A stretch of 64,000 nt of DNA from Blasia pusilla (Eukaryota), in assembly GCA_050084515.1 (NCBI GenBank), contig CM114271.1:43958001-44022000 (forward strand), read 5' to 3'. How positions within the stretch are numbered: the first letter of the stretch is position 1; every line of letters starts with the position of its first letter. The translations under genes and the position numbers were made by a program. Below the pieces are notes generated by a model. That model had not been told where the DNA came from, did not search any database, and saw only the letters and a list, made by a program, of their open reading frames with translations. Shown piece by piece: positions 3,701 through 62,767 of this stretch.

Positions 3701-4169
3701 AGCATCAGTGGCTCGTACGGCAGGATACACCGTTGGGCAAGAGCAGCTCCATGTCCTACCTTCAACCACACAAGCAACCTCTCGTCGGAGAGTGGATCTT
3801 GTTATGTCTCGAGGTGGATTCCGGACACTAGGTGATGTGGTGGTTGCTGATCCAACACGTTCTGACATGATGTGTAGAGCCGCACATACCAAAGGTTTGG
3901 CGGCCAAAGCTGCAGCAAGAATCAAGGAGTTAAGTTATGTTGTGAGACATGCGACTGACGGATTTATTCCGTTTGCAGTGGAAGTATTCGGTCATTTACA
4001 TGTATCTTTTGATACTTTCCTGAAAACATATGCTTACCACTCCCTCGAGAATCATTACCTTGCCCCTTCCCGTAGTCCTTCTCTCTCGGTTGTTACTACT
4101 TATTTTAGGCAATGCATCTCAGTGGCCTTACAACGTGCACAAGCCTCGGCATTAATACGTCGTGCGTAG
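749..4169 (+). mobile_element. CRE/R2-superfamily-like non-LTR retrotransposon (RT + C-terminal restriction-like endonuclease), pseudogenised
   Basis: Pro-rich N-terminus with CxxC (CIPCGKDF). RT motifs GVRPLVIGEV, FGVATPGG, VDVANAFNSVSR, GTRQDDPMG, IADD. CCHC knuckle CVCG...H...C. RLE motifs HDVIR, RRVDL, GDVVVADP, KELSY, FIPFAVEVFG. 1344-4169 reads in one frame with three in-frame stops (1949, 2864, about 2957), plus a frameshift upstream of 1344. Confidence 0.85.
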
Positions 4170-35590: not shown

Positions 35591-36013
35591 AGATAAGACA
35601 TGTGTCAAGAAAGGAATCTCTATGATCCCAAAGTCTACCTTTTGTTAATAATATGGATGGAAATCTTAGTAGGGCATCTCCATCTCATTATACATCTACA
35701 AAGTGGGATTTATTTTTGAGCCCTCCCCAAATAAGTTGGAGATCAAATATAATTCTAAAGGAATTTCATTTCTAAAAATTCTAAAATTTAGATTCTAATT
35801 TTTTTATAAAGTACATAGGAAAATGTGTTGAAATTTTAATAATGAAAGGAATTGATAAGACATCCGCCATGAAAGGACTCTTTATGCCAAATTCCACCTT
35901 ATGTTGATAATATAGATGGAAATATTATAAGGGCATTTCCATCTCATTATACCATTGCAAAGCAGCATTTATATTTGAGCTCTTTCGAAATACGGTGAAG
36001 ATCAAATATAATT
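35591..36013. repeat. Diverged ~160-bp direct repeat (35591-35753 / 35854-36013)
   Basis: Shared GATAAGACAT...GATGGAAAT...AGGGCAT.TCCATCTCATTATA...GATCAAATATAATT. Confidence 0.7.
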
Positions 36014-38271
36014 TGAATTGACCTTTGAAAATACATGGAATTACAAAGGTTTGGTAAATTTATGTTCATTACAAATAATAATTGACTCGTGTATATAATT
36101 CATAAGGATCCTTTGCATATACAAAGTAAAAACCTTCAAGAACATGTGTTTTGAATAGATCATGTCACAACTCATAAGATATTTCTATTGGACATAGGGT
36201 TGAAATTAAAAAAAGCATGCACTATATTCCCCTCTTATATATAGTGAGAATGCACTTCACTTTTTTGAAAAGAAATTTTCCAACTTCCAAAGAAGCTGAA
36301 AAAAATTGTGTAAGGCGCCTTCTAGGTGGAGATGCACTTATGTCACTCGAAAAAATACTCGGTTTTATGACTATGTTTAATGAATCATATAACTTACTTC
36401 ATGATTAAGAATGACCAATTTCTATTTTACTCACAAAAACTAAGTCACTAATACCTTATTGAGTAGCATGACTATCTTGGATTTTTTATGTAGAAGGGTC
36501 TACAACACAATTATTTTGGCATGATTGCCATGCCACACATATTAGGTGTCAAAATGACATATGGACATGAGGATGAATATTGATATGGTATGTACTATTA
36601 GGAACAAATTAGTTAGTCTTATCATTATTTATTGTGACATATCATCACAAGACAACTAGGTTAGTGGTTAATATAATAAATGATCAAACACGAGGAAAAT
36701 TTCTAAAACAATTGAATCATTAGATGACAAGTATACAAACATCATATGTCAATTTTCCAAATATGACTGTACCAGTCATTTTTATCATTTAAGTAATAAA
36801 TCTAGCCAATGATTCAAAATGACTTTGAGAGTTTGGATATAACAGCTACAAATAACTAGGAGGGTTCTCTTGCGATTACTTTAGATGACTATTTGAGTTG
36901 GATGATGTTTGAAGGTTATTTTCAAAAAACCTTCAAACTCTTTGGGTGGAGCTTCATGAAGCGACACATTGAATAGACTAAAGACTTTCAGGAAAAGTAC
37001 CACAGGATCTTCAAGGAAGACTATGCCTATCTCTTGGTTCTAGATAATTCACTATTGGAAGCAAAGTTGACAAGAAAGTACTTGTGATCATAGCAACCAA
37101 GAGGGGAGGGGACGAAGTCATAGATTTGAGTTGTGGTGGAGAAACTATTCAGAGAGAATCAATGAAGGGTCTCCTCTCAAAGAAGGAGATTAAGATACTA
37201 TCTTTTGAACATAATATTGACCAACAAGACCGTAAGAATATCACTACAGTCGAGCGGATAAGGGCATATCACTAGGAGTTCTCAGAGATCTAGAATAGAG
37301 AGATTAAGTTTCCACAATTGCATGACGAATTTTGAAGGGAATGTCGTCTTCTTAATTGGTTTCTTGGGTACATGAAAAGTGAATAGAAGTAAGATCCCCT
37401 CTTCTAGTTGGCATTCAAAATTGGGTAGGTTTGGATTTGTAAGACAAGATTTTCACACTTTATATGAAGTGTGAGATTTTGGCCTGAAGAAGACGACACA
37501 CACACATTGGTGAAGGGAAAGTCAAAGAAGACAACAACCAAGGGAGGAAAGGTAAGGAAAAGTAGATCAAACACGTAAATGAAATGAAGATCAATGATTG
37601 GAGAGGAATTCAAATTTATCAAGGATTAGAAAATGGTTGTCAAAATTCTCAAGAAAGGGGTGAATAAGAAGATCAACATTCAGTAGAGATGTTTGGATGC
37701 AGAGAAGCTAAAATATTTGATGATGATCCCAAACCTTCTTTTGAAGATTGTGAACTTTGGAGATTTGCAAGGAGCACTTTCCAAAGAAGAAAAAAAGTGT
37801 AAGGCATGGAGGAATACATGGCGGGCATGGGTTGAGAGGGGTGTGAGAAGGCCAAGCAAAGAGGGGGATGCAAAATGGGGGAGGGCAAAGCGGGTTTAGG
37901 TGGAGAATGGGGAGGGGGCACGTGAGGAGGGCAAAGGGGGGATGGAGAGGTTAGGACGGTTGTAGCAGGAGATAAGTTTGGCGGAAAAGGAAATGTGTGA
38001 AGAAGTTAGGATAGTTGGAAAGGGGTCGGTGAAGAGATCAGAGATTAGGACTATGAAAAAAAAAAGTTAATACATGCTTATTAGTCAAATTGGTTTGATG
38101 AGTATAAGTAATTGGAAGTGGAAGAGAGAAATAAGGAAAATCTTATTTTCCATCTTCCATCGTGTCTTAAACTTGCTCATAATCTTGCTTCTTTGTCTGT
38201 CACGCACTAGTTCTTTGTCTAATCTAATTTCTCCATAGATAGTTCAACTTGGTAAGAGATAATGTGTTTTG

Positions 38272-38734
38272 TGTCACATCTGAGTAGCCGATAGGCCGAG
38301 ATCTATCGTGGATACGACATAGGAGCCAACGAACTGTCTTGAGTGTAACTTTGTCCGGAGGTGTCAGATGAGGTTGAGGATAGGTCCGTTGTGTCAGAAA
38401 CATTGTTTTTGACAATTTTCTTGTTGAGGTCTTTCACAGCCGGGTGACTTGTTGAGCAAGTCACCCACCCCTCGTAACTTGTGCGCGCAAGTTACCAGGA
38501 GGATAACTCTTTTTAGGGGAAGAGCCTTTTTGGCTCTTCCCAACCCTATATAAGGGAGGAAGATGGCTTTCCCAAGCCATCTTTCTCATGTTGGGCCGTT
38601 GGAGCATCTCTCTTGTTGTTTGTGAGATAGGACGAGGGTGCTAGCCTATGGATTTCCTAAGAGCACAAGATGGATTGGACTTAATATGCCCATGTAGATT
38701 GAGGAGTGGAGTTTTAGGCCGGGTATGCCATTTT
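38272..38734 (+). repeat. LTR segment A, 5' copy (direct repeat of 46396-46857); contains a TATA box at 38546-38553
   Basis: TGTCACATCTGAGTAGCCGATAGGCCGAGATCTATCGTGGATA... is collinear with 46396-46857. Confidence 0.9.
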
Positions 38735-41700
38735 AATCTGATATTTACATGAGAAAGATGTCATGGGGCATGTGGGAATTCGTTGTTTGCAGGTAGGCAA
38801 GCAAGTTGCCTCGATTGGGAGCCCCTGGAGACGCCGGTTGGCATTTTGTTGACTTTTTTTTTTGTTAGGATGGTTGTGAGTAGAACAACTGTCCGTCTTT
38901 CATAGATTTTGTTGGTGTAGATTGTCGAGAGAGAGCAACAGAGTGTAGCGAGAACAACGCTCGGGTGTAGTGTGGAGAGTGTTATCGACGAGAGACACAT
39001 GAGTGTCGAGAAGGAGAGGAGCAGCTTTGAGAATTGCAGCAGTCGGGAGAGGAGCTAGGGTGTAGCCGCCTAAGGTAGCTACCTTGACTTCCATTTGTGG
39101 TTGGATCGTCATCACTAGATAGTGGATCTGGTGACGAGATCACAGACGGAGGTAGTATCACTTGGCAGGAGATGGACGACATTGGCCATCAAGGCATGCG
39201 TCGTTTCTCGAGTGCAGTGGGCACCATCAACTTAGATGAATTCATCCAAGAGTTCGACATGTGGTGCGATTTCCAAGAGATACGGACCCCGACACGGTTC
39301 AACCCTTTCATGGCATGTAAGGGGTTGTTCCAGCACTTGGAATATCTATCGATGGATGATTAAATGGAGTTATGATCTTATACTCCGTAGAGATCAATGC
39401 CTAGAGGATGTATTGGGCCCCAGGTTATGTGTCCACTAGTGATCGCGAGGCATATGATGGGATTGTGAGAGGAGAGAGACCCACACAATGAGCCCCGAGT
39501 ATAGATGGAAAGGAGGGCACTGAATTAGGTGAGATGGCAGAGACCTCTAGTGGTAGAGGGCCACCAAGTTCCAATCCTACAATGGAGTTCTTTCGACAAT
39601 TGGGGAGGAGCTACAAGCTGAAGAGTCTATAGGATTTTGAGCGACGATCGGGTGAGAGTCTACGAGAGGCGTTCACACGCATAAGGAGGCTGATCATTGC
39701 TTCTTATGGAGTGATTGAGGCGCATTCAATCTAGTATTGGTACGGGGTTCTGGATTGAGAACTACGGAGGAGAGTCCGTGATGCAATGTTGCTTCATACG
39801 GCGAAGCCCACACTAAAGGTGGTCTTTGAGTTGTTTGAGCGTATTGAGCTCAACATGAGTGAGAAGCAAGTGGTGATCACTAGATTTTCTCGGGATTTTG
39901 ACGGGTTCACAGGTTACAGGAACCCCATAGGTGCCACAGCGAGCACCAGTACTACGAGAGCGGATGAGTGTGCCTAGAGAGCAGGGTGGGTACCGTGAGC
40001 CTATGAGGCAACAACCCATGCCTAAATATGTTGCCCAATAGTTACCGATGTTGTCTTGTTGGACGTATGGAAGGGTACATAGGCAGAGAGACTCCCCATA
40101 TTATGGGAGAGGACCACAAGCGCCTCTGATTGCTAAGGAGCCACAGAGGATGGCCCCACCATAGTACCAGTGTGACTATTGCCACAGATATGGTCACACT
40201 AGGGATAGATTTTTTGACCTTCGTCGAGAGGCACGTCCAGAGGTAGGGTGAGGGCATGGGGGGGTTATTCGGGAGGAGGCCGAAGAGTTATTGCTGGACG
40301 TGGTGGTGGAGGACCACCGACTCCTAGAGGAGATGGAGTAGGAGTACTAGAGACGGTGCTTCTCTCGTGCATCAATCAGTTGGAGTAGAGGATTGTTGCC
40401 ATGACGATGATGCAACGCAAGGAAGGAAGGGAGCCTAGAGTAGGTAGTGTGGCTCCAACTTCCATCTCTTACCCTGACTTGGGTGAGGATCTTGCTAGTA
40501 TGGGTTTTATGTGTAGTGCGGCTCAGGTTGAGGTTGTTGCGGTGATAACTCGAGGTGATGTGAGAGGCACTAAGCCATCGAGAGGTGGAGTTGAGATTGA
40601 CCCACTAGAGAGGACCAATGGGCGGCAGGTCAGGGTTCCTCAGTCGTTCACATTGTTAGAGGCACTACACACACCATCGATGGTGCCTCGACGACTAGTG
40701 GTGCCTACAGGTCAGGCAGGTGCGTCGACATCACGAGGAGTTGGAGTGGTAGCTCTTATGCCGACTCGAGTGGATTTAGTGTCGACCACACTGGTGGAGA
40801 TGGCCACCAGGGTGAGCGAGGCTCCATTATTTTCCGCCATAGAGTTAGTGATGTTGGGAGTTGGACCAACTGAGGTGTTCCGGCTGGCCGCCACATTGTG
40901 TGAGCTTGGAGAGGTGACAACCTCTCGTTCAAAGGTAGTTGAGGAGGTGGTGGACTTGCTCTTGTAGCAAGTGCTTGGGATGTTCCCTAATGAGTCATGG
41001 CATACGGCGGCGACAAAGTTGGTACATATGCCAGTTTGACCGGCCATAGAGTAGGCCATGGTGACACCAGGCGTGGTGTTATTCGATAACCGAGTTGAAG
41101 CATTTTTCTTGGTTAGTCCGACAGGGACAGTGTACCACCCGGAGCGCATCCTACTTGATTCGAGAGTGCAACCCTTGATGTTAAGGAAGGCGGCGTCTTT
41201 AGCTTTGGGGTAACGGAAGGCCGACATTGAGCCTTGTCCTTCCAGATACAGACCTCGATTGGGGACGTGTCACCCATGCAGTATATGACTCGACAAGAGA
41301 TAGCTGTGAGAGTCCAGCGAGCATGCAAAGGATAGCTATGGTACGCACACGTGCGATCACGACACCAACTGAGTTGTACGATATGTTGGTGGGGACTTTA
41401 GTGTTATGTCCTCTAGGATTCATCCTTGACTTCTAGGAGGAGACCGTTGCTTATCAGCAAGGTGATGGTCACATGACAGGCGGATGAGTCAGTTACCCGT
41501 GTAGTTTGCGAGACAAGATGGTCGACCACGAGATGAGTCTATGACCACGATGGCAACTTTCACAGGTAGTGTTTCTTGGCCAGGAGAATTGTTGGAGGGG
41601 AACGCACATGCAAAGGATGTCTCAATAGCGGATAGTCCCACGGAGAGACATGCCATGGCGGGTGTCTCTTCCCATGTTGGCGAGATCTCTTCACCATTGT

Positions 41701-41870
41701 GGGGTACGACTCGAGAGCTACAGAGAAGTGCGGACAACCTTGTGAGGCAGGCGTGGAGTCGTGCTTTTATCCCGGAGCATAGAGAATTAAGTGACAATTG
41801 AGCTCCCGGAGTTGAGACATTGACACCATTGGATACCACGCCCATTGTGTGGCAGTGTCTAGAGGAGGGT

Positions 41871-42770
41871 GTTAGGGTGTTAGATATCTTTGGAGGGATT
41901 AACACTATATTAGCTACGGTGTTGCAGGTGGGCATACAGGTGCATCAGTACCTTTATGTGGAGAGAGATGAGACGGCGTGGCGAGTAACATTATGTCACG
42001 TGGCAAGATTGGTCCAGAGGCATCATGAGTTGTTGTCGGTAGCTGCAATGGGATATCATCATACACTACCCGCCGACATCTCTTTGGTGGGGGTATAGGA
42101 TCTGGATAGAGTTGGCACCATTCATTTGGTGATTGCTGGATGGCCATGTCACGCTCATTCATTAGCTGGCCAAGGGTTTGGATTGCAGGATCCGAGGTCA
42201 GGGATGTTTTGGGAGATGCTGCGAGTAAAGAACGTGTCGTTGTTGGGAGACACTCGTGCACATGTGATGATGAGTATGCATCAGGTGAGGTCCTGGTTAG
42301 GACTTACTGTGTTTTTAGATGCATCCAGAGTTGGATCACGCACCCACCGTCCACGGTTGTGGTGGACAAACAAGATACCATCAGAGGTAATGAGTAGAGC
42401 ATACGATGGAGTTCAGAGAGCACCACATCTCACAGTGGATGCTATTTTGGGCTCAGGGCATTGATCTCATGTGATGACGCGGTATGATAGACCACCGTTG
42501 GTGATAGCCAATAGGGTGGGGGAGTTGAGGGCAGCCTTACCTATGTTGGTGAGCTTCCCAACATCCCACACCTTTTGTTAGGGAGGGCCAAGCATGATTT
42601 GGGATGAGGTGACCCAAGCATTGGAGGAGTCTATGCCAGATGAGCGCAAGCGCGCCATGGGGTTTGCTACGGGTACTATGGCGGTGCCTGATATGACTGA
42701 GGCATCATGGAGATAGGTGTTGGGCAGGGGATGGACCTCAACTATCTCACATGGATAGTCATCCTAGGTA
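41871..42770 (+). pseudogene. C5-cytosine DNA methyltransferase (DNMT3-like) domain inside the gypsy pol
   Basis: Motif I VLDIFGGI (41877-41900), II YVERD, IV VIAGWPC (Cys codon 42147-42149), V DPRSGMF, VI (K)NV, VIII HRPRLWWTN, IX ERKRAMGF, X R*VLG. All in the frame of the 41541, 41820 and 42126 ORFs. Four in-frame stops, a frameshift in motif X, and an apparent deletion before motif VI. Confidence 0.88.
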
Positions 42771-45700
42771 TGGTTCAGCAGAGAGAGATGCGAGTGTCAT
42801 CCATGCCATCACGTCCATGAGTTGGAGTATAGATATAGGGTCTCTACAGGCATTGGCTAAGGGCAGGACGAGGAGAGATAGGCACCCATGGACTTCTTGG
42901 GACGTTGTGTGAGCGGAGAGTGCGAAGGCGGTTTGAGCAGCACATGTTCATTTTTCGGATGTGAAGCATGGTGTAGGAGGTAAGAGTGGAGTGGATAATG
43001 CAGAGGTGGCTAGGGTTGCTACATAGCACCCAAAGTTGGAGGTTTTGTCCTCTCCGAGTGAGGTTACGATGGAGACTTGGGATCGTGTGATAGATCTCAA
43101 GTTGATAGGAGGAGAGCAACGGCGGATTCATAGATTTTTGAGAGGGCATGTAAGTTGTCTTGCCTTCAGTATGAGAGACTTGGGTACGTTGAAGGGTCAC
43201 GGGATACAGATTGAGTTGGCTAGTGATACGCCGATCTTTCGTGGATCCTACAAGTATTCCAATATCGAGCGAGCCTTGATTCAGAGCAAGAGTCAGGACT
43301 TGTTGGAGGCAGGACTTGTGGAGTTATCGCATGGGGAATATGCATCTCCCAAAATCATGCCGGCGAAGAAGGATATGTATGGAAAATGGACGGATAGGTG
43401 GATGTGCGGGATTACCAACCTATCAACCGATATATGAGGTCCGATCGATATGCCATGCTTACTCTTGAGGAGATCTTTGTTGTAGTAGGGCATGCAAAGA
43501 TCTTTAGCACTTTAGATCTCCGTGCTGGCTATCATGAGCTTCCTATCAAGTTGGAGGACAGGGAGAAGACAACATTCGGGGGGATAGATCAGTTCGGGAG
43601 AGATTGCTTGTATCAATTGGGGTTCTTACCATTTTGGTTGAAGAATGCGCATGCGGAGTTTCAGAGAGTGACGGATAGGATTTTGGTTGGCTTGGATTTT
43701 GTACGGTGTTACATAGATGATATTCTTATCTTCAATTCCACGGTTGAGGAGCATGAGCGACACCTCCAGTAGGTGTTGCTCATGCTCCTCAACCGTGCGA
43801 CACCTACTGGAGGTGTTTCGACGATTGTAGTTATATGGACTAAAGTTATATCCATGCAAGTGCATATTCTTTCAGGAGCAGATTGAGTACTTGGGACACA
43901 TGCACCATATACCCGAGTGGGTAAGATGTCTAGTAGACGAAGGTGGAGGCTATTGCGCAGATTCCATGCCCTACAAATGTGAGTCAAGTCCAAGCATTTT
44001 TGGGACTGGTGAACTTGTATCGACGGTATGTCAAGGGTTTTAGTGCGATCGCGAAGTCTTTGACGTTGCTGACGAGACTTGATCAGGTTTGGTTGTGGGG
44101 AGATGATTAGGAGCGAGCATTTCAAAAGCTCAAGGACATGTTGACGTCCTCATCCATTTTACAGAGACCAATTAGGGGTTGCCCATTCCAATTACATGCG
44201 GATTGGAGCATGTTGGGTCTAGGAGCAGTGCTTACTCAGAGGGATGACGAGGAGAGGGAGTTCATTGTGGCTAACGCGAGCCAATCGAACAACATTGTAG
44301 AGGCAAAGTACAACTCCTACAAGGGAGAGTGCTTGGATGCAGTGTGGGCCGTGGCACACTTCAGGTGCTATGTATTCGACAACCCTTTCACACTTATCAC
44401 CAATGCTAAGGTTGTTGATGGAGTCCGACAAGGTTACAGGAAAGCTTGCCATGCGGGCTCTATTACCATAGGAGTATGAGTTCGAGGTGGTTCACAAGCC
44501 AGGTCGGCTGAACCAAGATGCGGATGGGTTGATTTGTAAACCATGACTGCATCACAGAGACGACACAGGAGCTCGATGGCATGGAGAGAGTAATGAGGAG
44601 ATGGTGCCATGTTGGCATGCATCTGCCTATCTTTGTTGGTTGACTATGGCAGGTCAACCCCAAGTGGTGACTCCAGTGGTGGGGTCGGATGATGAGTCTT
44701 TAGAACTGGAGGTCAGTGAGGAGGCAACAAGTGGTCGTGATATCCATGACAACGTGGAGGTTGTGGAGTTCATACGTACTAGCATCATAGCGAGCACAGT
44801 GAGTGCTAGGGAGCGAGATCGGATCCTACAAAGAGCCACCAGGTTCAGGTGGGAGGAGACTCACATTTTGCGAGTATGGGGAGATGGTAGGATAGGAGTG
44901 GTGCCTCATCCTTCCCACCAAGCACATGTAGTGCGACATGCCCATGAGGAGTTGGGCATTTTGGAGTAAACCGTACTTACAACTTACTCCAGGTTCAGGA
45001 TTGGTGGTGCGGTATGCACACTGGGGTACAACAGCTTGTGGCCACATGTATGGTATGTAACCCAATGCGAGCATCCTTCAATGCTCCCACTACGCAGTTA
45101 CATCCTTTGCCAATTATGGGTTTAGGTTATTGGTGGAGTTTAGACTTCGCGGGACCTTTGCCATTGACGGGGCGTCATCATAGGTACGTATTGGTCATGG
45201 TGGAGCATTTCTCCAAGTGGATAGAGTTGGTGGCACTACCGGACAAGGCGAGCGAGGGAACAACTTATGCATTTCTAGATCGTGTGCTTAGTCATTATGG
45301 TGCACTAGCGGAGGTGTTGACTGACCAGGGTACCGAGTTCAGGGGAGAGTTTCAGAACTTGTGTGATCAGGCGCTGATAGATCACCGCACCACGTTAAGA
45401 GATCATCCTGAGGCGGATGGGCTGGCGGAGAGAGTAATACAGACACTGAAGAGAGGATTGTGCAAGTATGGCTTGAAGCGGAGACAATTGAGGGAGTGAG
45501 ACCTATAATTGCTCTGGTTGGCTATGGATTATCGCTTTAGTCGGCAAGTATCCTTGGTGTCATTTTCATCGTACTTTTTGCTCTTTGGGAGAGAGCCAGA
45601 TTAACCTGCAGCTATTCGACGTGACATGGCGAAGGTGTTGGATCTTGATGATCCAGATGTGTGGGTACAAGCATGTTCTCAGAGGGTAGAGATTTTTTGT

Positions 45701-46039
45701 AGAGTTATGCCCATGGCCTTTGAGAACTTAGCTATTGCTTAGCATAGGGATATATTGAGATACGCGACCATTCATGGAGGAGGTTATCATCCAGGGATTA
45801 GGAGGTTTCATCCTGGAGATTATGTGTATTTACACTAGGCGGCACCCGCGACGCTAGATGTCATTGCAGGGCGCACGATCCTACGTGTGCACCAGGTGTT
45901 ACCGACCGGAGTCGTCATGTTGGAGGGACGGGATGGTATGATTTGGAAGGATCATGTGCGTAACTATGTGCCATGTCATCTTTTGAATGTGGACAAGACA
46001 ATGGATCCGAGCTTGGCAGTGGTACCTGCAGGCTTGAGG

Positions 46040-46177
46040 TGTATGTTGTGTGGATCTGCGAGGGATGCATCCACCATGTTGATATGTGATGGTTGTTCTC
46101 GAGGATGGCATATGTCATGTCTGATCCCTCCTCTTGATGTAGTTTCTACGAGACGATGGATATGTCCGAGATGTGTA
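46040..46177 (+). other. PHD finger (C4HC3) at the integrase C-terminus
   Basis: CMLC...MLICDGCSRGWHMSCLIPPL...WICPRC, in the same reading frame as the integrase core ORF at 45014. Confidence 0.92.
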
Positions 46178-46257
46178 TAGGGTAGTAGCTCAGGTCAGGG
46201 AGATGTGTATTTTCTATCTGGAGTTAGGGGGACCAAATTGCCAGCTAGGGGGGCGGT

Positions 46258-47008
46258 TGTGTGATCTTGATGTATATGTATGAGTTGATTTCTGTACATA
46301 TGTGGATCTGCCCGTATGTGGGGAAAATTGGTGTTTTATGGTGTGGATGTGACCAACGATGTATGTTGTGTAGCAATGTGTTTGCGCACGATAATTGTCA
46401 TATTTGAGTAGCCGATAGGCCGAGATCTATCGTGGATAGGGCATAGGAGCCAGTGGACTGTCTTGAGTGTAACTTTGTCCCGAGGTGTTGGATGAGGTTG
46501 AAGATAGGTCTGTTGTGTCAAGAACGTCGTTTCTGACAACTTTCCTGTTAAGGTCTTTCACAATCGAGTGACTTGTTGAGTAGGTGATCCGCCCTTGGTA
46601 ACCTGTGCGTGCAGGTTACCAAGAGGATAGCTATTTTTAGGGGAAGAGCCTTTTGGCTCTTCCCAAACCTATATAAGGAAGGAAGATGGCTTTCCTAAGC
46701 CATCTTTCTAATGTTGGGTCGTTGGAGCACCTCTCTTGTTGTGTGTGAGATAGAACCAGGGTGCTAGCGTCTGGATTTCCTGAGAGCACAGGATGGACGA
46801 GGCTCAACATGCCGATGTAGATTAAGGAGTGGAGTTTAAGACCGGATGTGCCGTTTTTACTACTCTTATTTTTGTTGTGGGATCTCGATGTATATGTATG
46901 AGTTGATTTCTGTACATGTGTGGATCTACCCGTGTGTGGGGAAGATCGGTGTTATGTGGTATGGATGTGACCAGCGATGTATGTTGTGTAGCGATGTGTA
47001 TGCACACA
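46258..47008 (+). repeat. 3' terminal repeats: B1 (46258-46395), A2 (46396-46857), B2 (46876-47008)
   Basis: TGTG.GATCT.GATGTATATGTATGAGTTGATTTCTGTACA... occurs at 46258 and 46876; A2 matches 38272-38734. Confidence 0.9.
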
Positions 47009-47009
47009 A

Positions 47010-47700
47010 AATTTGCAACAAGATAAAGTTGGTAATATCCATGTATTTGGATGATCTAGGTAAGCATATTGATCTTCCTTGTTCCTAGTGAGTGAGGGAT
47101 GAAGTAGATGGCAATACAAGGAATGTTCCAAGACTTATGCCTTGAAAATGTAACAAACCATGCGGGTGTTAGAGCATTTCATACGGAGGAGACAAAAGAC
47201 AACGGATGGGAATATATCAAGGTTTTGCATAAATCAAAGATTTGGTAAAAGAAATTCAAAAACTTCTCAAATATTCAATCCCAAATATTTTTGGGAAATT
47301 GAAAACCCGAATGTTAAATAAGTTTTCGGAAAATTTCTTGAAAATTCCATCTTAAATATTTTGCTAAACCTTGTTAGGAATGTGGATACGCATCATGCAA
47401 AATTATGTGTGAAAGTCCCTCTTTATGTGCAACGAGATCTCTAATTCTCTTGAAGATGAAAATCATGGAAAATCGATAGAGGACGGAAGTGACGATTATT
47501 CTCACAATCGAGCGAAGTGGAGATGATGCTATTCCATCCAAATTTGCAAGACATAAGAAATAGCTTTTTGTGTCTAACTTAGAGGAATTTATAAATGTGA
47601 CACTGAATGGAGATCGCGACAAATGTAAAGGAATATCTTGGTTGATGTAATTGAGTCGCAACACCATAAGGAAACAAGTTGATCCTAGGTGTATAATAAG
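47010..47700 (-). mobile_element. Very old CRE-like RLE-region relic, possibly continuing at about 38100-38271
   Basis: Patchy similarity by eye to about 3090-3950 (CCCATCC, GTATTGCCATCTACT = VLPST, GTTGCAAAT versus GTTGCTGAT). Confidence 0.3.
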
Positions 47701-48279
47701 AAAAAAGATGGGATAATTAGAAAAAATTGCAATTTTTTCCAAGGTTTTCCCTTAATTAATATTTGATGGGAAGGGAAAAGTGAATTTTAATTGAGAAGTG
47801 GAATTACTTAGAAGAGTGGAATGTTACTTTTCCAAGGTTTCAAAAACTAAAGATTCTATTGAAATTTTGAAATGAAAAATATGGTTATTTTTTACAATAA
47901 TCATGTTAATTCATATTTGATATTTTGGGACAAGAAAATAAATTTGAATGGAAATAAAAAATTATTTTATTAATTAGAATTAACTAATAATCATACTATT
48001 AAGGGCGTTAGCCCTAGGTGAGATGCTCCTAATGAAGGCCTTGTGTGAAGCCTTTCAGTTATTGTTTAATTTTGCCTATACTAAGAACACCAATTTTGAC
48101 AAATTTGGTCTTTTAGAAAGCTTCATTTTGTTCTAATATGATTATTCATTAATATGTAAGGGTGGATGACTTACGACTTAAAGTATATGACTTGGAATAA
48201 TAAATACATTCTTCCCTTAGTCATTTGACATTCTACATAGGGGAATTACCCTTAAGAGTGATCTATATATATTTTTGGA

Positions 48280-49200
48280 TATATGGCCTATGAATTAATA
48301 GGATCTTAGATTAGTGTAATGATCCATGACTTAGGATTTAGGGTTTTGAGTGTTTAGGCTTAGGTTTTAGAATTCTACATTCATGAATTATAAACATTTG
48401 GATATATTTTTTAGGATTTATGGCCAATAAATGAATAAGATTAATGAGTGTAAGGGTGACAATATGATTTAGGGTTTAGGATTTCCAACGTATTGCTTGG
48501 GTTTTATGGATTATGGTAGTTGTTTTGGATTTAAGAACATTAGGGTATATCGCTTAATAGTCTTTAAGGCCAATAAAGTGTAATATGATTGTTATTAGGG
48601 CTTAGGCTTGAGGGCTTACGACGTATGACTTGGGTTTTAGGGCTTAGGGTTTAGGGGAGTGATGTTTTTAATAACCTATGGAAGTTATATTGCTTAATAG
48701 TACAAAATTTTATGGCCAATGAATTTATAGGATTATCAAGTGTAAGGGTGTATGACTTAAGGTTTAGGGTTTATCGCGTATAACTTGGATTTTAGGGCTT
48801 AGGGTCTAGGGTAGTTTTTTTGGTTTAATAACATTGGGAAATATTTCTAAATAATAGTATATATGGCGAATGAATTAATAGGATTATAACGTGTAAGGGT
48901 ACATGACCTAGGGTTTAGGGCTTACGACCTATGGCTTGGGTTTGAGCATTTAGGATTTAGGGTAGTTTTTTTTAGGCTTCATAACATATGGGCTTATTGT
49001 TTAGTATTTATAGTGGCCAATGAATTAATAAGATTCTATAGTGTAAGGGTTTATGCCTTAGGGTATACGGGTGAGGGTTTAGGATGGAGGCCGTGTGTTC
49101 ATAGTTTAATATGATTTGCGTGTATTGCTTGGTGTTTATGGCCAATCAATGGATAAGATATAGCCTAAGGGTGTATGGTTTTGGTTTTAGGATGTAAGGT
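48280..49200. repeat. Degenerate ~140-150-bp tandem repeat containing telomere-like TTTAGGG/TTAGGG motifs
   Basis: Units begin with TATGGCCAATGAATTAATAGGAT-like text near 48282, 48419, 48565, 48711, 48862, 49013 and 49137; most carry TTAGGG(T/C)TTAGGG-like motifs. Confidence 0.85.
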
Positions 49201-50466
49201 GACCAGGTGTATGACCTAAAGATGTATGAAAGATGTAGGATGTGGGACCTACCAATATACAGGGTGTAGTAAACCCGATTTTCATCTAATTTTCAAATGG
49301 ATGAGCATATAATTATGAATGGATTTAACAATTTAGGTTGAAATCATCAATTGGACCCGGTACATTGTGGAGAAATTTTTAAGAGTTAGCTCGGATAATT
49401 AAGTGTCTAAGATTGTAAATTAATTCTTAGACTACTACTTCGTACAAGTTGGAGGTAGATGCCTACAAGATTGATTTGAGATTAGTATGGATTCAAACAA
49501 GGAAATTTCAACTTAATTATTTTTTTCCAACCAACATAACATCCACTAACCAAATATTACTAATTTAGTTAGTGAATGTTATTTTGATGAGAATAGTGGA
49601 AGGGGAAGAGTAAATATTATTCAAAATTTTATGAAAGAAGGAAATTATTTATATAAATTAAATGATTATTTTAACTGAAATCTTATAAATTTTTTAAAAA
49701 TAAAATTATACTTAAATTTAAAGTATAAATATATATTATTAAAAAAAGAATTTTCGTGCGCTAACTTCACGATTAAATACCGATTAAAAAGAAATCATTC
49801 AAATGAAACCCGGGAGTCACATGTGTGCACGTGACCGTCCTCTCGAAATGTGGGACGGGCTTTCGCAACGGTCATTTCGCCGTCGGGACAGAAACGGTGG
49901 CCTGTGGTTCGGGAAAGCCTGCAACGGTCAGGTGACCGTTCCTCCTCGAGGGTTTGAAACTTCCTCTTCGAAATTCCACTCAGGATGGGCACTAACGTAA
50001 TCCTTCCTAAACGCAGTCTAATGTAGGCTAGCAGTTCTCTTCTCTGTTCCTCGTTGCTGAAAGCGTCTGCGTTTTGTTTTCTATTCATCGTACTTTGCGA
50101 CATTCCGTTTTAGGTTCAGACAATCTCGCTCTTCTGTTCCGACCCCGACCCTGTTCAAAATTCACCCCTTCATTTCGTTTTCAATGCTTACTGAGACTAT
50201 TTTTTCTACCTGCTGTACACTTCGATCAGTGGTGCCACTCTTTCAATTTTGTTGTCTTCTACTTCGAGAGATTCCTGTGTGTTTGCATAGATTGGTGTAG
50301 ATACTTGGCACCCGTTTCCATTTACGCCTGGTTTGCGCGCCTGTTCCCATGCGCCTACTCACTCCTACTATGCGAAAGCACAGTCACTGAAGGAGAAGGA
50401 TTCCACGACGGGAAAGAGAAAGAGATCGTGAATTTCCGAGGATTTGTGGTACAGGAATTGTTGGCG

Positions 50467-53400
50467 ATGGCTGGAGGGAGGAAGAGTGTTGGTTCTGTGA
50501 ACTTTCACGAACTTCCGCGCAAGCGGTTGCAGTCGTTATGTAAGAAGCACGGATTCCCGGCAAATAAAACCAACCAGGCGATGGCTGATGCGCTTTCGGC
50601 TCTTCTGAATGTAAGTGAAACACGTCCCATTGCACTGCAATTTCGTTCGTTTCCCTGGCGTGCTCCGGACTGCGCATAGAACCCCTTCAGAGCTGCTGTT
50701 CGTGATTCTCGCACTACGCTCAGTGGAGACGTCGAAGCATTGCCCTGCGACTGGTATCACAAACAAAACCTCTACGTTTTGGCGGGGATGAATCACACTT
50801 TTGCCGTGAGACTATCGCGCTGTGCATATTGCCAACATCAAATCTCTTCCCCTGCAAGCACTGTCAGGCATTCGAGTCTAAAATCAGTTTGCTGTCGTAG
50901 ACGCAGGAGCAAGTGAGCCACAGTATCGCCCTAGACAGTCCAACTATGACTAGCCAAAGTAGTCGTTTCTCTCCTAAGGATATGGAGGCGAGTCCTATGG
51001 TATGTGCCAAAAGTCTCCTCTTCTCCAGCAACAGATGTATCTGGGAATATCAGAGAGCGCTCGTAGTAGTCTCGCCAAAACGAAATAACATAAGCATCAT
51101 CAACTTTAAATGGTTGTTCTCTCTGGTCGTAAGCTTTTGTAGAATTTTGTATTGAGTTTGCTGCTTGTGCTTCGGTTGAAGACTGTGAAACGCACGTCAG
51201 GAGCTTATGACGAGGACTCGCTGCCGACTATTTCTGCGTCACAGCAGGAGAGTTTAGAAGTTCTGAGCACTACTCTCCCAGAGATTTTGCTCGAAGATTC
51301 AGTACGGATGGATGTTGCACACGGACACAAGGAATTGGAGGGCGTGGAATTTAGCGAGAGTACCGACCTGAAGGAGTCTGAGGAGAAAGGAGAGAACCTG
51401 CTAGATACGACAGGGTGGAAGGATATGGATGTTGGCGAGAGCAACCCAATTATGATCTCTCAAGAAGAGACAACATCAGCTATCATGGAGTCGAAGGACA
51501 TGGAGTGTAGCGAGATCTTGGAAAATGCGGTCTCTCCAAAGGAAACAGTGACTTCATCAGCAATGACAGAGTCGAAGGATATGGATTGTAAGGGGGTCAT
51601 CGAAACGCGGAACTCTCCACCAAAAAGAGGGCCTTCCTTAGGAATGACAGACCCGGTGGAGATGGATTGTAGCCATGTCCTTGGAATTATGCCAAATCCA
51701 GAGAAAAGAGAGATGCCCATCGCAATGACAGAGTCGAAGGAGATGGATTGTTGGGACCTCTCTACAGAGGGAGCAGACATTTCACTAGAAATCACAGAGT
51801 CAAACAAAATGCACTCTGATATCATCTCTGCTGAGGAAGAAGGGACTTCAGTAGAGATGACAGATTCTGAATCCACTGCTTTGACCACTGTGAATTGCGG
51901 CGATTTCACTTCAGAGCAAACAGGGACGCTCGTGGAGTTCACAGACTCCGACTCTATTGCGATCACTTCTCTGGAATGTGAAGAGTTCTTCCCAGAGAGA
52001 GCAGAAACCTCTGTAGACATGAACAAATCTGAAGGCACTATCACGAACATAATCCAGCAGGAAACGCCTCTCCCACTCTCTATCATGCCTCATTCTCCGC
52101 CAACGGAAATTTTTGTGTCAAGTGACGAGGGGGTCCGGCTGTTCGTAGACTTGAACAACCTAGGTTTTCCACGATTAGACATGCTGGTGCCAAACGAGGG
52201 TGCTGTCAATATAAGTATGTTGACACAGAGTTTGGCAAGCGATAGTTTGAGAAGAGAGTGTAAGCAAGGAATGAGTACAGACAGTATGGAAGAAGAGATC
52301 CTTGGGAGGAACAAGACTTCGACGAAATCAGAGCAGACTTGCCCCCAAGGGGTTGGCACGATGGGAGCCCAGGAGTCTAGACGGGGTGAGCAAAACGATA
52401 TCTTCACTATCGGCCCAAGAACCAATATTTCCACGCTGATGAGTTTTGCTGGATCTGTGAAGAGCGGACCATTTTCTTCTGAAGAAATCCCCCCTCTGAC
52501 GGTGTCCTTCGGGAGCCCGGTGACTTTAGCTTCTCCCTGTTTGACCAACGTATTGTATAGTCAGAAAGCAGAAGAGTGTTCCGATGGTCTTGTGTCGATT
52601 ACGGATCAGATCCACGTGAAACCGCTCGAGTACCGCTCTCAGGAGAGTGAGAAGGGATCTATGGAAGGGGCTGCTGCAGCCGAACCTCTCTCCGAGAAAC
52701 AATCTGTGCAGGTGGGTTTCAGATGACTGCTTGCATGTGGCAGCCCTATGATGCTTCGATTGCAGTTGATTGACATTCTTGATTTACCCGGGGTCTTGTC
52801 TTCTCACTGTAAAACTTGTCTCTACTTGCAGAGTTCCACCAATTTCCAATCTGAAGAACAGACGAGAAGGTTAGTTCTTTTCCTGCCGCTAAAATTACCT
52901 TGAAGAGATCTTGAATTCTGGCAGCAGGTGTTGAGGTTTACTCATATTCCAAACTGTATGTTTCAGTTGCAGATCCGAAGTCTGTTCTCCGGTCGAAGGC
53001 CGTGTGAAAGTGATTGTGAATATGCTGCAGAGGAATGAAGGGGAGAGAATGTCAAGCATAACTCCCTCTGCCACTCGTAAGGACAACTACAAACAATCCC
53101 CGCTTGTAAGGTCATCCCGTATTGCAGCAGATATAGAACGGGCGTCTAGGATGGGTCAAATCAAAAGGACAACGATCTTGGCTGGTAGAAGGTTAATACA
53201 GCAACCAATTAATTCGTTACTCTCACTTGAAGACGATCTGACGGGCGGCACGGTTGATAGGATTACATCGGCTTCAGAAACCAGAGAGGTCCATGTCGAA
53301 GAGAATCCAGAGTTCGAAGCTCTCGCGGGAGTAGCGTTGCAGGAGTGTGGAAGTCCACCTACAGATCACCAGAAGGTCGTAGTAAGTAATATCACAAAGT

Positions 53401-54817
53401 CAGATCTGTCTCGTTCACAGGACTTTCTGGGCAGAGGATCAAGGCAGGTACCAATAGCTCCATCGCGCTCACTTGGGGACGGTCTGATGGCTGCCGATAC
53501 GATTGCGTCAGCTTCAGAATGCAGAGTGGCCATTCCCGATGGGAATCCGGGATCAAGAACTCCGCCACCGGTAGTAGCGTCGACACGATTCGCCAGCCAC
53601 CACACAGACGCTCAAAAGTTTTTGCGAAATAAGGTGACAGTAGCAGATTTCTCTCCTTCACACGACAAAGAACTGAGTACCACTGGATTTTTAGGCATTA
53701 AATTCCTGCCATTCGAAAGGGAGTCAGCACTAGCCCCAAGTGCGTGTTTACCTGCAAGTGATCAGATATCCGGGGTAGAAGAGACTGACTCTACTGTCGT
53801 CTCAGCCCCACGGAGCGATGAGACCGTGGGCGCTGGTCTTCAAAGGAATGAGGGTGCAGGTAACCCGGTGACCACGGGGGTAAACCTTGTGTCTGAAGCT
53901 TGGATGTATAAACCCACGAAGCTGCCAACTGAAAAGTTCCAGAAGGTGAAGGAGAAGAACCGGCGCATTGGGTCTGCCATTGAGAGAAAGCTTGAGCACA
54001 TGGAAAGAGTGGCCATCTCAGTGGCTACCAAGGGTGAGCTCTCGAACAGAAGCTCGGTGGTAGCTGAAGTTCGCTCCAAAGCCGAGACCGCTGCCGCAGC
54101 AGCATCACCGACGTCTGTGTCGATGGATGATCAAGGGGAATCCATTTCCGATCGTGTCGATGTCGATATGATGGAAGTGTGTACGCCAGTTCACTCAGCA
54201 AAGAATGCGAGAGAGATCCCCGCATCAACCTTGAGTCCACTAGATGGTAATCTACCACTTGGAATGGAGGCCGTGGGACCGTCGCCGAAACCAAGCACTC
54301 CGAAGTCATCGGGCTCCTTTTTGGATGAGATTCTCCGGCAGACTAGTGTTGGCAAGGAAAATATCGCCAGCAGTATTTGTGCGAAGGAGAATGACAGGTT
54401 GAGAAGGCACCAAGAACTACACAAAACCCCACTAACGGGAAGGTCGAAAGAAAAGGCCCTCAGAGCTGCTGAGATCAAAGCTGCGTGCCACAGGGAAAAG
54501 ATTTTGAGGAATCGTCGTGGGTTCCTCCAAGAGACGGATTTGGAGGCGAGCTTGGTGAGTGCATGGACATACTCTTTTCTTTTTGCTTTGAGCGTACAGA
54601 AATCTCCTATCGTTTTGACTTCCTGGAACTCGACTGAAATCATCCCTCAAAGAATGCATAATAATAGATCTGAAAGTACACAATTTTTTCATTGTGGAGG
54701 TTATGTGCGTGAAGAGATGAAAGATATTTTGTGTCCAGTTTTCCTAAGTGCGACTGTGTCTAGCAGAGCACCTCAGCAAACCAATCCAAGCAAGTGGGAC
54801 TCAGCAGACTGTTGTGA
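50467..54817 (+). CDS. Uncharacterised plant protein with an N-terminal SAP/HeH-like module and a long acidic/Ser-rich disordered body. Exons approx. 50467-50610, 50901-50999, 51182-52711, 52832-52869, 52967-54554, 54764-54817 (last exon uncertain)
   Basis: FHELPRKRLQSLCKKHGFPANKTNQAMADAL N-terminal motif and FVSSDEGVRLFVDLN internal motif. GT-AG junctions with compatible phases join two stop-free exons of about 1.5 kb each. Confidence 0.8.
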
Positions 54818-56904
54818 GTGCAAAATCATTTACGCCACATCTGTCTGCATAAAACGTCAGGTACATACATACCAGCAACTTTCAGAGACCAACAATTAAT
54901 TTCCTTGATGTTGCCACGCTATCACTACTGAGAAAAGTTAGCCAAGGGAAACTACACATGAAATTATAACTGTTTTGAGTGCTGTTGTCTCATCACTGCT
55001 CTGTTGAACGACACACCAGATGGAGTTGTTTGGGGACGTGCCGAATGCGTGAAGATTGAACGAAGTAAAAGCTTGTATGTGTTGAGGGTGGTACAGCGTG
55101 CAGCGCGGGCGTCCATCATTTTCCCGGCTTGAGTTGAATATGGCAAGGCTATGACTATCTATGAGCAAACCCCTGCATCAGTCCCAAGGTCGGAACCAGG
55201 CAGGGCTACAACGGATACGAGGGCATTTACAGAGTGGACGAGCCCAATGTGGGAAAGGTTTGAATAGGAAAGTGTTTGTGCGGATGCCATTGGGGCAACG
55301 CCGTCAAATCTACAATTAACTCAATTGGAGGCAGGCTTTCTAGAGGTCGGACTAGTGAGGAAGCTACGTACCATTATCAACAGGCAACCAAAAGGTTTCC
55401 CTTTTTTGGAAGTCAGGAAGCTATCTGACTTTTATTGCTAGCGTCTTGAAGGGAAAGAAGGAAAGCAGAGATAGACGACCAGGGCGACATATCCTGGTCG
55501 TCTATTTGACATGAGAGATGACCACATTGGTCAAGAAGTTCTTCTAAGGCAGAATAAAAGTAACTAGCACAATCGTGCTTTCCCATAAGTGAATTTCTTC
55601 ATCTGTGTGATGTACGCATCGGTGTCAAGTCCCGTTAACTTGCCTCTTGCCAAAAAGACGAACCATGTGATTTCTTTTCCAAGGGTTAATTGGACTCTAT
55701 GACTAAAACACATCCATCGTAAACGATGAATATTCAAGGATATGGCATTGTTGTCCCCGAGATTAGGGGGCAAGAAAGACTTTCTAACATTCCAAATATT
55801 TAGAAGAAGCTGGATGTGTTCAATCGTCCTAGTTGAACATATAAATAGTAGTTATTCATCTCAATTTTGCTCCGATTGCCGCTTGAAAGGAAAAGAGGAT
55901 TTAGAAAATAAGATGGTAGACATGAATGAATCGAGGAGCTACGACTTAGTATGGGATGTCAAATAAGAAAGAAACTCAAGCATGTAAATGATCCTGCGTT
56001 CTATTTTGTTCGATTATGACGCAAGAGCGGGACTAAAGAAAAACACGATCTCTACGAGGAGGAATATTACTCTTTTGGCAACTTCTTTCCCAAAGACGTG
56101 GATTCCTTTCAGATTAAGATTAAACTCCCTCAAGCATCCACACTAAATTTTGAGCTCGAGAACCTCCCCTCTCAACACAATTGGGCAAGTCACTCATACA
56201 ATTGAGACACAGAAATTTAACTGCATGAGGAGATGTGAACGAGTCGTTGGAAGACTTCTTACAATTGCAATAAGGACGGGAGATCTCACTAAATGATGTT
56301 GTAAAGTGGAAAAACAACAAAGGTTTGTACTTATGTAATAATGGAAGAAAGCATCATTTATAAAAAGAGTATGAAAAAAAGTGAGAAAGAAATCAAGGAG
56401 AGAGACACGTGAAAGGGAAAGGAAATTTTTTCGGATCAATTTGAAGAATCCCATTTCCACATTTCTAACAAATGTGAATACTACGGAAACGTCAAAATTA
56501 ACTAGAAAGGTAATAAAAGCAAATATTCCTTAATATAGTGCAACCTCATATCTGATAGTGTTCATTAAAACCCATTTCTCAACATGTCGCACCTTTTGGA
56601 GACTATGCAAAGGTGCTCATGCAAAGGTGCTCTATGTCTATCTTCCATTTGGTTACACCAGTAAGGACGCGGTTGTCAAATTTTATAATGATAAAGAATA
56701 TTGCATAAAAACATAAATTTTTTATTATTTTATTATAACAATATTTCAGAATTATCAAAATTTCAATAAAATTCTAACCAAGATAATTCAACAAGATTAA
56801 AAAGTAAATTCTAACGATTTCTTAAAAAAAAATCAAATTTGAAAAATCCTAAATTATTCCCATAACTGCATTTTTCTAGGTCCACTGCGTAGCTCATCTC
56901 TTCC

Positions 56905-58148: not shown

Positions 58149-58158
58149 ACTCTGACGT

Positions 58159-62767
<4,609 letters not shown>

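Follow-up and report, generated by a model that had tools for sequence, protein, structure and literature searches.

A decayed Ty3/gypsy retrotransposon with a DNMT3-like cytosine methyltransferase domain in the liverwort Blasia pusilla, a probable land-plant member of the Gypsy-DNMT3 lineage

The closest described relative of the element analyzed here is KnitGypsy-Dnmt3 of the streptophyte alga Klebsormidium nitens. According to PMC5890265, retrotransposons captured DNA methyltransferases (DNMTs) more than once, and the KnitGypsy-Dnmt3 methyltransferase has a ratio of nonsynonymous to synonymous substitution rates (Ka/Ks) below 0.2. The legend of Fig. 4c in the same article describes the repeats of the K. 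nitens element as 'the same as that of a DIRS retrotransposon', in combination with Gypsy domains. Furthermore, the K. nitens domain yielded no methylation in yeast; human DNMT3B failed in the same test, and the result is called inconclusive by its authors. A preprint (10.64898/2026.05.21.726589) lists 'streptophytes (Gypsy-DNMT3)'. Here, a Ty3/gypsy element with a DNMT3-like domain is described from a liverwort. It lies in a stretch of 64,000 nt from Blasia pusilla (assembly GCA_050084515.1, contig CM114271.1, positions 43,958,001 to 44,022,000 of the forward strand), which is called the window and to which all coordinates refer.

The element occupies 38263-47020 (+), has a length of 8.76 kb, and contains a protease, a methyltransferase, a reverse transcriptase (RT), an RNase H, an integrase, and a PHD finger in this order. 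It is probably an old, dead Ty3/gypsy copy of the Gypsy-DNMT3 lineage that was first described as KnitGypsy-Dnmt3, in a liverwort host. It was assigned to this lineage because the side of the methyltransferase tree, the domain order, and the repeat layout are common to both. The element is, hence, a land-plant representative of a known kind, and not a new kind.

The methyltransferase was read in one frame starting at 41802 (+). The frame contains VLDIFGGI (motif I), VERD (II), IAGWPC (IV, with the Cys present), DPRS (V), and KNV (VI), and it continues with RPRLWWTN (VIII), ERKRAMGF (IX), and R*VLG (X), so that the order is I, II, IV, V, VI, VIII, IX, X. In every aligned relative, as in the window, motif I stands ahead of motifs IV-X, unlike the permuted order of DRM. 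For profile searches, the stops were translated as X. The Pfam profile PF00145 matched with 22.1 bits at a curated cut-off of 22 (E 1.2e-4), and the named relatives of the domain reached 24.8-58.4 bits. The best PDB sequence match was the DNMT3A catalytic domain (E 5e-4; M.HhaI 0.063). A HMMER search of 1.84 billion representative proteins gave 1066 matches with E<=1e-3, 405 with E<=1e-10, and 35 with E<=1e-30, the best at 1e-50. Many of these relatives sit in long polyproteins, and tblastn matches of relatives span residues 3-310 of the window domain (41808-42731). Judged by these matches, the C5 cytosine methyltransferase domain at 41802-42770 is real, far beyond chance. The initial annotation, which had been made from the letters of the window, had proposed an ordered, intronless, and non-permuted DNMT3-like domain in frame between the protease and the RT of a Ty3/gypsy element. 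The motif readings, the PF00145 match, and the domain order bear this out, and so do the rankings described below for the DNMT3-like character.

The same annotation had called this copy dead, and the lesions that it named are real. Six in-frame stops lie within the domain (42096, 42462, 42579, 42714, 42756, and 42765), and a seventh is found immediately upstream of it (41799-41801). The Glu of motif VI, which is kept in 145 of 147 distinct relatives, is replaced by Lys. Motif IV reads PCH, at a site where 127 of the 147 relatives have Gln. In addition, 17 residues are deleted between residues 142 and 143 (about 42228), where 84 of the 147 relatives have extra residues. Because 287 DNA reads from the same species carry extra letters at 42227/42229, the deletion is private to the window copy or its near kin. 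Of the catalytic set, the window copy has kept the motif IV Cys and has lost the open frame and the motif VI Glu.

The kind of methyltransferase was analyzed with a profile built from eight family members, which yielded 53 matches among all PDB sequences. DNMT3A (6.6e-23), DNMT3C (1.7e-20), and DNMT3B (2.1e-19) ranked highest, weaker matches were found for M.HhaI (3.9e-10), tobacco DRM (9.5e-10), Arabidopsis DRM2 (7.5e-8), and HaeIII (1.3e-7), and DNMT1 was absent among the 53. The alignment with DNMT3A spans motifs I to X in order; DRM aligned by its C-terminal part only (chain residues 225-353). An AlphaFold model was generated for the methyltransferase of an intact relative (L003, 55% identical to the window copy) from a 32-row alignment, and it had a mean predicted local distance difference test score (pLDDT) of 94.5. 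Among the Foldseek matches listed for this model, to rank 50, all were catalytic domains of DNMT3A, DNMT3B, or DNMT3C, with template modeling (TM) scores of 0.70 when scaled to the length of the query and 0.78 when scaled to that of the target. By profile and fold ranking alone, the enzyme thus appears closer to DNMT3 than to DNMT1, DRM, DNMT2, and bacterial enzymes.

The domain is widespread in the family. Longer proteins with 38-59% identity to the window domain carried it in 19 of 19 cases, i.e., 13 hypothetical proteins of Marchantia polymorpha, one protein of Calypogeia fissa, two of Sphagnum, and three unnamed ones. Further named relatives were Closterium proteins, GAQ93235.1 of K. nitens, the 'pol' protein KAF8056149.1 of Scenedesmus, and three Cymbomonas (CYMTET) proteins. 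An alignment-based protein search was used for names and domain orders only, as its E-values are inflated by the inclusion of RT and integrase in the query alignment. In a protein atlas, a nearby cluster is eukaryotic, with Streptophyta as its most common source. From metagenome contigs, 426 relatives were retrieved and 80 loci were kept. A scan with the window's own domain pieces read the window as PR1-PR2-preMT-MT-RTn-RT-RH-INT-PHD. In the 80 loci and the window, the methyltransferase follows the protease or precedes the RT in 74 of 81 sequences, another order did not occur, and seven sequences received no order call. Streptophyte algae, liverworts, and Sphagnum all contain members of this large family, of which the domain is a stable, selected module. 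A single insertion of a host DNMT3 gene fragment, confined to the window copy, is extremely improbable, since the domain is at the same place in all sequences with an order call, is present in named proteins of five other genera, and has been selected like the RT. Family-wide occurrence, the number of metagenome relatives, and purifying selection (see below) rule out a one-off capture of the methyltransferase.

Two domain orders were found among the fetched proteins, the window's order (protease-methyltransferase-RT-RNase H-integrase-PHD) and RT-RNase H-methyltransferase-integrase-PHD; the PHD finger is present in both. A tree of 163 full-length methyltransferase domains (IQ-TREE, LG+G4, support by the Shimodaira-Hasegawa-like approximate likelihood ratio test, SH-aLRT, only) has two sides, each with an SH-aLRT of 99. 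On the window's side, which comprises 46 rows, 28 have the window's order, 18 are of unknown order, and none has the other order. The opposite side comprises 117 rows, 79 of which have the other order, 19 have the methyltransferase directly before the integrase, 19 are of unknown order, and none has the window's order. The few named rows are all streptophytes on the window's side (Klebsormidium, Closterium, Marchantia, Calypogeia, and Sphagnum) and chlorophytes on the opposite side (Scenedesmus and Cymbomonas). A sister group with the methyltransferase between RNase H and integrase is formed by P0010, P0022, P0050 (Scenedesmus), P0218-P0220 (Cymbomonas), and about 95 further proteins. One 18-row group (support 100) unites the window with Calypogeia, Sphagnum, and 11 rows from Marchantia. 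The end branches of these Marchantia rows have lengths of 0.003-0.06, which suggests a recent amplification in Marchantia.

The K. nitens protein GAQ93235.1 matched the window domain with an E-value of 2.7e-25 and 34% identity over the match. It is placed on the window's side with an SH-aLRT of 99, which denotes one side of a branch in a tree without outgroup. Its order of zinc knuckle, aspartyl protease, and DNA methylase (Pfam) is the window's order. An independent origin, in which the liverwort elements gained a DNMT3 domain from a host gene separately from the Klebsormidium elements, is very unlikely. It would fit the repeated capture of DNMTs by retrotransposons reported in PMC5890265, and the present tree contains no host genes, but the K. 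nitens protein shares a well-supported tree side with the liverwort elements, Closterium stands between them, and the gag-protease-methyltransferase order and the rare split repeats are common to both.

The initial annotation knew of no description of such elements in land-plant gypsy lineages. A literature search, whose coverage left out most subscription journals and supplements, likewise retrieved no report of them from a land plant. The accessible parts of PMC5890265, PMC6453930, PMC10952607, PMC11982613, PMC5784723, PMC9289625, PMC9033089, and the preprint 10.64898/2026.05.21.726589 name the elements in no land plant. However, the novelty is smaller than first thought, because the lineage is shared with K. 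nitens and at least 13 M. polymorpha gene models of the family are already present in public databases as hypothetical proteins.

Conservation of the catalytic set was counted in the alignment of the 147 distinct relatives. The second Gly of motif I was kept in 143 relatives, the Cys of motif IV in 140 (the other seven have gaps), the Asn of motif VI in 140 (for the Glu, see above), the first and second Arg of motif VIII in 141 and 140, respectively, and the Glu of motif IX in 143. Selection was quantified with 50 sequences that cover both methyltransferase and RT/RNase H, using 525 pairs, the method of Nei and Gojobori, and medians. For 410 close pairs (dS 0.15-0.3), dN/dS was 0.48 for the methyltransferase, 0.37 for RT/RNase H, and 0.76 for the protease-linker region; these values mix past selection with neutral decay after insertion, which inflates the close pairs. 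For 15 deep pairs (dS 1.2-3), which have a dS above 1 and are near saturation, the respective values were 0.16, 0.09, and 0.31. The methyltransferase tracks the RT throughout and is more tightly constrained than its upstream protease-linker neighbor, and the value of 0.16 in the deep pairs indicates purifying selection. These results support the view that the methyltransferase is a selected feature of the family, and not a one-off insertion.

The junction of methyltransferase and RT contains a conserved in-frame stop codon in many relatives of the window's branch, seen in L001-L041 and other loci. The peptide P-K-V-x-A is kept in 29 loci, about 96-110 codons past the methyltransferase match. 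Directly after this peptide, 23 of the loci have TAG, five have TAA, and one has TAC, and CAA CCN comes next in 27 of the 29. At the matching place in a more distant subfamily, L038 has TAG CAG TTA and L039 has TAG CAA TCA. Gene models that end at the stop include P0159, P0163, and P0166 (Marchantia), P0158 (Calypogeia), and the unnamed P0161. In L003 and L039, the RT continues in the same frame past the stop (e.g., L003:4494-4520 and L039:4661-4672). A further subfamily, L045-L080, has no stop between methyltransferase and RT, and in the window a rearrangement has altered the junction (about 43029-43064), with a shift of the frame. Leaky stops of the UAG-CAR-YYA kind occur in plant viruses, and the stop between methyltransferase and RT looks like a programmed read-through site of that kind. 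As this stop is present in the closest relatives, the methyltransferase ends the upstream gag-protease frame in them. The placement of the domain 'inside pol' by the initial annotation, therefore, needs to be modified: the domain is in frame and between protease and RT, but in the closest relatives it closes the upstream frame, with a stop before the RT.

The ends of the element do not conform to the two plain long terminal repeats (LTRs) and tRNA primer site of Ty3/gypsy elements. Repeat A is present at both ends, with 86.4% identity over 463 nt between 38272-38734 (A1) and 46396-46857 (A2) in a blastn comparison, and repeat B directly precedes and follows A2 (Table 1). The first 10 nt or so of A1 match the end of repeat B, and a B-length copy was not found ahead of A1. 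Five metagenome loci include both ends of an element (L041, L047, L050, L069, and L080), and they show the layout A1...B1-A2-B2 as well. Duplications of 4 bp flank A1 and B2 in L041, L050, and L069; L047 and L080 have no clear duplication. Plain LTRs with B2 as a stray partial LTR were considered and rejected, because the layout recurs in five loci and the duplications flank A1 and B2. In the window, the ends of the element were picked by eye within a few bases, so that the chance of the AGATAA match is better than 1 in 4096 and the duplication is a candidate. At L041, the junction of the B end and the A start is palindromic and resembles a joined pair of element ends. Split direct repeats coexist here with a DDE integrase, TG...CA ends, and target duplications of 4-6 bp, and the route of reverse transcription is unexplained.

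The family was also analyzed in the host by mapping about 1% of one same-species genomic run on the element at >=85% likeness. In total, 70085 DNA reads mapped, the depth was several hundred in every bin, and 364 reads were at least 99% alike. This depth, which is unscaled to single-copy sequence, suggests a copy number in the host of roughly a hundred or higher. Differences between reads and window were found at 1073 places, led by A>G (299) and T>C (252). Therefore, the window copy has gained G-to-A and C-to-T changes, and we infer a decay as in methylated dead repeats. In three RNA runs, the reads were biased at least 10-fold to one orientation, including over the methyltransferase; this orientation is the sense strand if the libraries were of the usual stranded type. 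The RNA depth was 1-10 from gag to methyltransferase and 10-43 from RT to PHD finger.

Several points weigh against the view that the element is a dead member of the Gypsy-DNMT3 lineage whose live copies encode a functional enzyme. The tree is the result of a quick search with midpoint root, and the term 'DNMT3-like' is taken from profile and fold rankings and not from a joint tree with host DNMT3, DRM, DNMT1, and bacterial enzymes. Near 38735, next to A1, no site was found at which initiator tRNA could prime with <=2 mismatches; other tRNAs were not tried. The methyltransferase region is free of stops in just 5 of the 80 metagenome loci, so most copies examined are dead, like that of the window, and the composite nature of the dN/dS values has been mentioned above. 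Most RNA reads are less than 90% like the window copy, so their source is other copies, and the RT-integrase part may draw reads of related families. A single activity test has been published for the lineage, with the K. nitens domain in yeast, and it yielded no methylation (PMC5890265). Lastly, motif IV reads GWECQ instead of GWPCQ in 62 of the 147 relatives (window residue 115), i.e., Glu replaces Pro before the catalytic Cys. The last two observations would agree with a role of the domain other than DNA methylation, e.g., RNA methylation as in DNMT2, or a function as a DNA- or S-adenosylmethionine-binding module in assembly or targeting. Nevertheless, such a role is unlikely, because the whole catalytic set is nearly invariant, which would be needless in a mere binding module, and both fold and profile match DNMT3, not DNMT2.

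The PHD finger at the integrase has its best solved relatives in KDM5B PHD1 (2.4e-12), KDM5A PHD1, CHD4, DPF3, PHF21A, ATXR5, UHRF1, and AIRE. PHD fingers of the KDM5B/CHD4/AIRE type read the unmodified histone H3 tail, a chromatin state that is also read by the ADD domain of DNMT3. We hypothesize, with the chances about evenly balanced, that live copies encode an enzyme with de novo DNA cytosine-5 methyltransferase activity. Most of it would be synthesized within the Gag-protease polyprotein, and smaller amounts as a fusion to RT-integrase-PHD by read-through of the stop, so that it would be present in the particle or the pre-integration complex. There, it could methylate the new complementary DNA (cDNA) of the element, as has been proposed by de Mendoza et al., and the integrase PHD finger might tether integration to chromatin with unmethylated H3K4. 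The initial annotation had also put forward the cDNA or the insertion site as possible targets. The window copy itself is capable of none of these steps.

Alternatively, the methyltransferase might act on host chromatin and not on cDNA, either on the DNA around a new insertion or elsewhere in trans. The outcome could be a gene-body-like CG pattern, or the element could damp its own expression and thereby become tolerable to the host. A PHD finger of a type that reads the unmodified H3 tail would bring the polyprotein to chromatin, where DNMT3 enzymes work, and possible effects on the host methylome are discussed by de Mendoza et al. (PMC5890265). However, the stop in the closest relatives splits the methyltransferase from RT-integrase-PHD, so most methyltransferase molecules would not be joined to the PHD finger. 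The present data agree with either substrate, cDNA or chromatin, and we regard action on chromatin as the less probable of the two, with perhaps one chance in a handful or slightly better.

A wider picture can also be drawn tentatively, which as a whole is possible rather than probable. In this picture, an ancient Ty3/gypsy lineage of green plants would combine a toolkit of a DNMT3-type methyltransferase and an H3K4me0-type PHD finger with split-repeat replication, and its two domain orders would run along the streptophyte/chlorophyte split (with few named hosts). The bryophyte methyltransferase would end an abundant gag-protease frame at a leaky stop, and liverworts, M. polymorpha among them, would transcribe the lineage to this day and might harbor mobile copies. 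If true, a de novo DNA methylation activity encoded by transposons would be at work, unnoticed, in land plants. Earlier tests bearing on the question of what a retrotransposon gains by encoding its own DNA methyltransferase were confined to yeast and to domains from algae that are hard to manipulate, and the streptophyte domain gave no answer in them. A liverwort is now seen to contain the lineage in abundance and to transcribe it, and more than 12 near-identical gene models exist in M. polymorpha. Since this species offers good genetics, methylomes, and chromatin maps, the question becomes testable in a land plant. Furthermore, bryophyte 'DNMT3' gene counts are inflated by such elements unless these are recognized. 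What makes the family interesting is the range of its hosts, which covers Sphagnum and liverworts such as Marchantia, together with indications that it is active at present and several additions to its anatomy: a PHD finger, split repeats flanked by target duplications, a stop ahead of the RT, and, in green algae, a second domain order.

The coordinates of all features of the element are summarized in Table 1. The RT-RNase H-integrase order of Ty3/gypsy elements was recovered with Pfam. In contrast to these domains, 7 of the 10 window pieces compared with Pfam had no family, including gag, protease, and linker pieces; this applied to all three pieces of the gag region (39088-39360, 39759-39974, and 40389-40964). 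A phmmer search with the protease-like pieces detected a matching stretch upstream of the methyltransferase in Marchantia, Sphagnum, and unnamed relatives, and a Pfam aspartyl protease is found at the equivalent place in GAQ93235.1 of K. nitens (P0094) and in Closterium P0210.

Table 1. Features of the Ty3/gypsy element in the window
Feature	Position	Strand	Evidence
Left candidate target-site duplication, AGATAA	38257..38262	.	identical six bases at 47021-47026
Terminal repeat A1, element start TG at 38263	38263..38734	+	blastn to A2
Upstream coding remnants, gag by position only	38735..41054	+	broken reading frames
Protease-like region, two frames, D-S-R at 41157-41165	41055..41433	+	position and similarity to relatives; no Pfam family
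Protease-methyltransferase linker, methyltransferase frame, ends at stop 41799-41801	41505..41798	+	similar in Marchantia, Calypogeia, and Sphagnum; no Pfam family
C5 cytosine methyltransferase domain, DNMT3-like, dead	41802..42770	+	motif reading, PF00145, PDB and protein-library matches
Reverse transcriptase, two frames	43027..43772	+	Pfam RVT_1 E 3.9e-11 on 43398-43769
RNase H	43937..44476	+	Pfam RT_RNaseH_2 E 8.3e-23, RT_RNaseH E 2.6e-16 on 44111-44476
Integrase, zinc-binding and DDE core	44547..45499	+	Pfam Integrase_H2C2 E 1.7e-8, rve E 7.2e-14 on 44948-45496
PHD finger, C-terminal end of integrase frame	46040..46177	+	Pfam PHD E 1.4e-11, on piece 45839-46177
Repeat B1, directly before A2	46256..46397	+	88% identical to 46874-47015 (88.7% over 141 nt)
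Repeat A2	46396..46857	+	blastn to A1
Repeat B2, after A2, element end CA at 47020	46874..47020	+	alignment to B1
Right candidate target-site duplication, AGATAA	47021..47026	.	read directly

Several other features were observed in the window. A GDSL esterase/lipase gene with about five exons is present at 5761-7405 (-). Its exon at 6035-6451 (-) has 75% identity to MPTK1_1g06380 of M. polymorpha and 64% to Riccia fluitans; mosses reach at most 59% (Sphagnum 59%, Ceratodon 57%), and vascular plants are lower. This exon, which was preferred to the element itself as an unsafe guide to host identity, places the host among liverworts near M. polymorpha but distinct from it. A LINE-like element with long open frames at 728-4169 (+) (RVT_1 E 2.2e-9 on 1950-2864) is far less decayed than the gypsy element. 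The only Rfam match in the window is a lone 5S rRNA at 58158-58303 (+) with 85.3 bits, which covers the full model and has a length of 146 nt versus 120 nt of the model, pointing to an insertion; its surroundings are repeat-like. Three tandem repeats of 81 nt (27-residue units) at 51496-51751 (+) are located in a host gene without Pfam family, inside its long open frame (50032-54899). From 36001 to 50000, G exceeds C on the + strand with a GC skew of +0.22 to +0.31, which extends past both ends of 38263-47020.

The comparison with known systems yielded likenesses and differences in each case. Mammalian DNMT3A/3B/3C are the best profile and fold matches and have the motif order I-X in common with the element. 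Also shared are PC(Q/N)D-S in motif IV and R-x-R-x-(Y/W/F)-W-x-N in motif VIII, followed by a short target-recognition region. However, the identity to the L003 model sequence is about 21%, motif IV of the elements is GW(P/E)CQ, and the element methyltransferase has no adjacent PWWP or ADD domain, its sole histone reader being the distant downstream PHD finger on the integrase. Ngaro/PAT-type retrotransposons, which belong to the tyrosine-recombinase order DIRS, carry split direct repeats, and the A1 - internal - B1 A2 B2 layout is like theirs. In contrast to them, the window element combines a DDE integrase with TG...CA ends and target duplications, and it lacks a tyrosine recombinase. A histone-reader domain fused to the integrase C-terminus is also found in chromoviruses, where the chromodomain steers integration (10.64898/2026.05.21.726589, introduction). 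In the window element the reader is a PHD finger and not a chromodomain, with a target mark deduced from the PHD relatives only.

The green-algal elements with the order RT-RNase H-methyltransferase-integrase-PHD (Scenedesmus KAF8056149.1 and Cymbomonas) likewise encode an RT, an integrase, and a PHD finger, which are homologous to those of the window element, as is their methyltransferase with about 26-35% identity. They differ in the location of the methyltransferase between RNase H and integrase and in the tree side. KnitGypsy-Dnmt3 shares considerably more features with the window element, namely the Ty3/gypsy domain set, an intronless and non-permuted DNMT3-like domain in a polyprotein, the zinc knuckle-protease-methyltransferase order, and the methyltransferase tree side. 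The DIRS-like repeats, which for K. nitens are taken from the figure legend, correspond to A1...B1-A2-B2 of the window, and purifying selection is indicated in both cases, by the published Ka/Ks and by the dN/dS of the deep pairs here. The conserved in-frame stop between methyltransferase and RT was seen in the liverwort branch, the K. nitens protein used for comparison being partial. The differences are the methyltransferase sequence, with its identity of about one third, and the host, which in the present case is a land plant.

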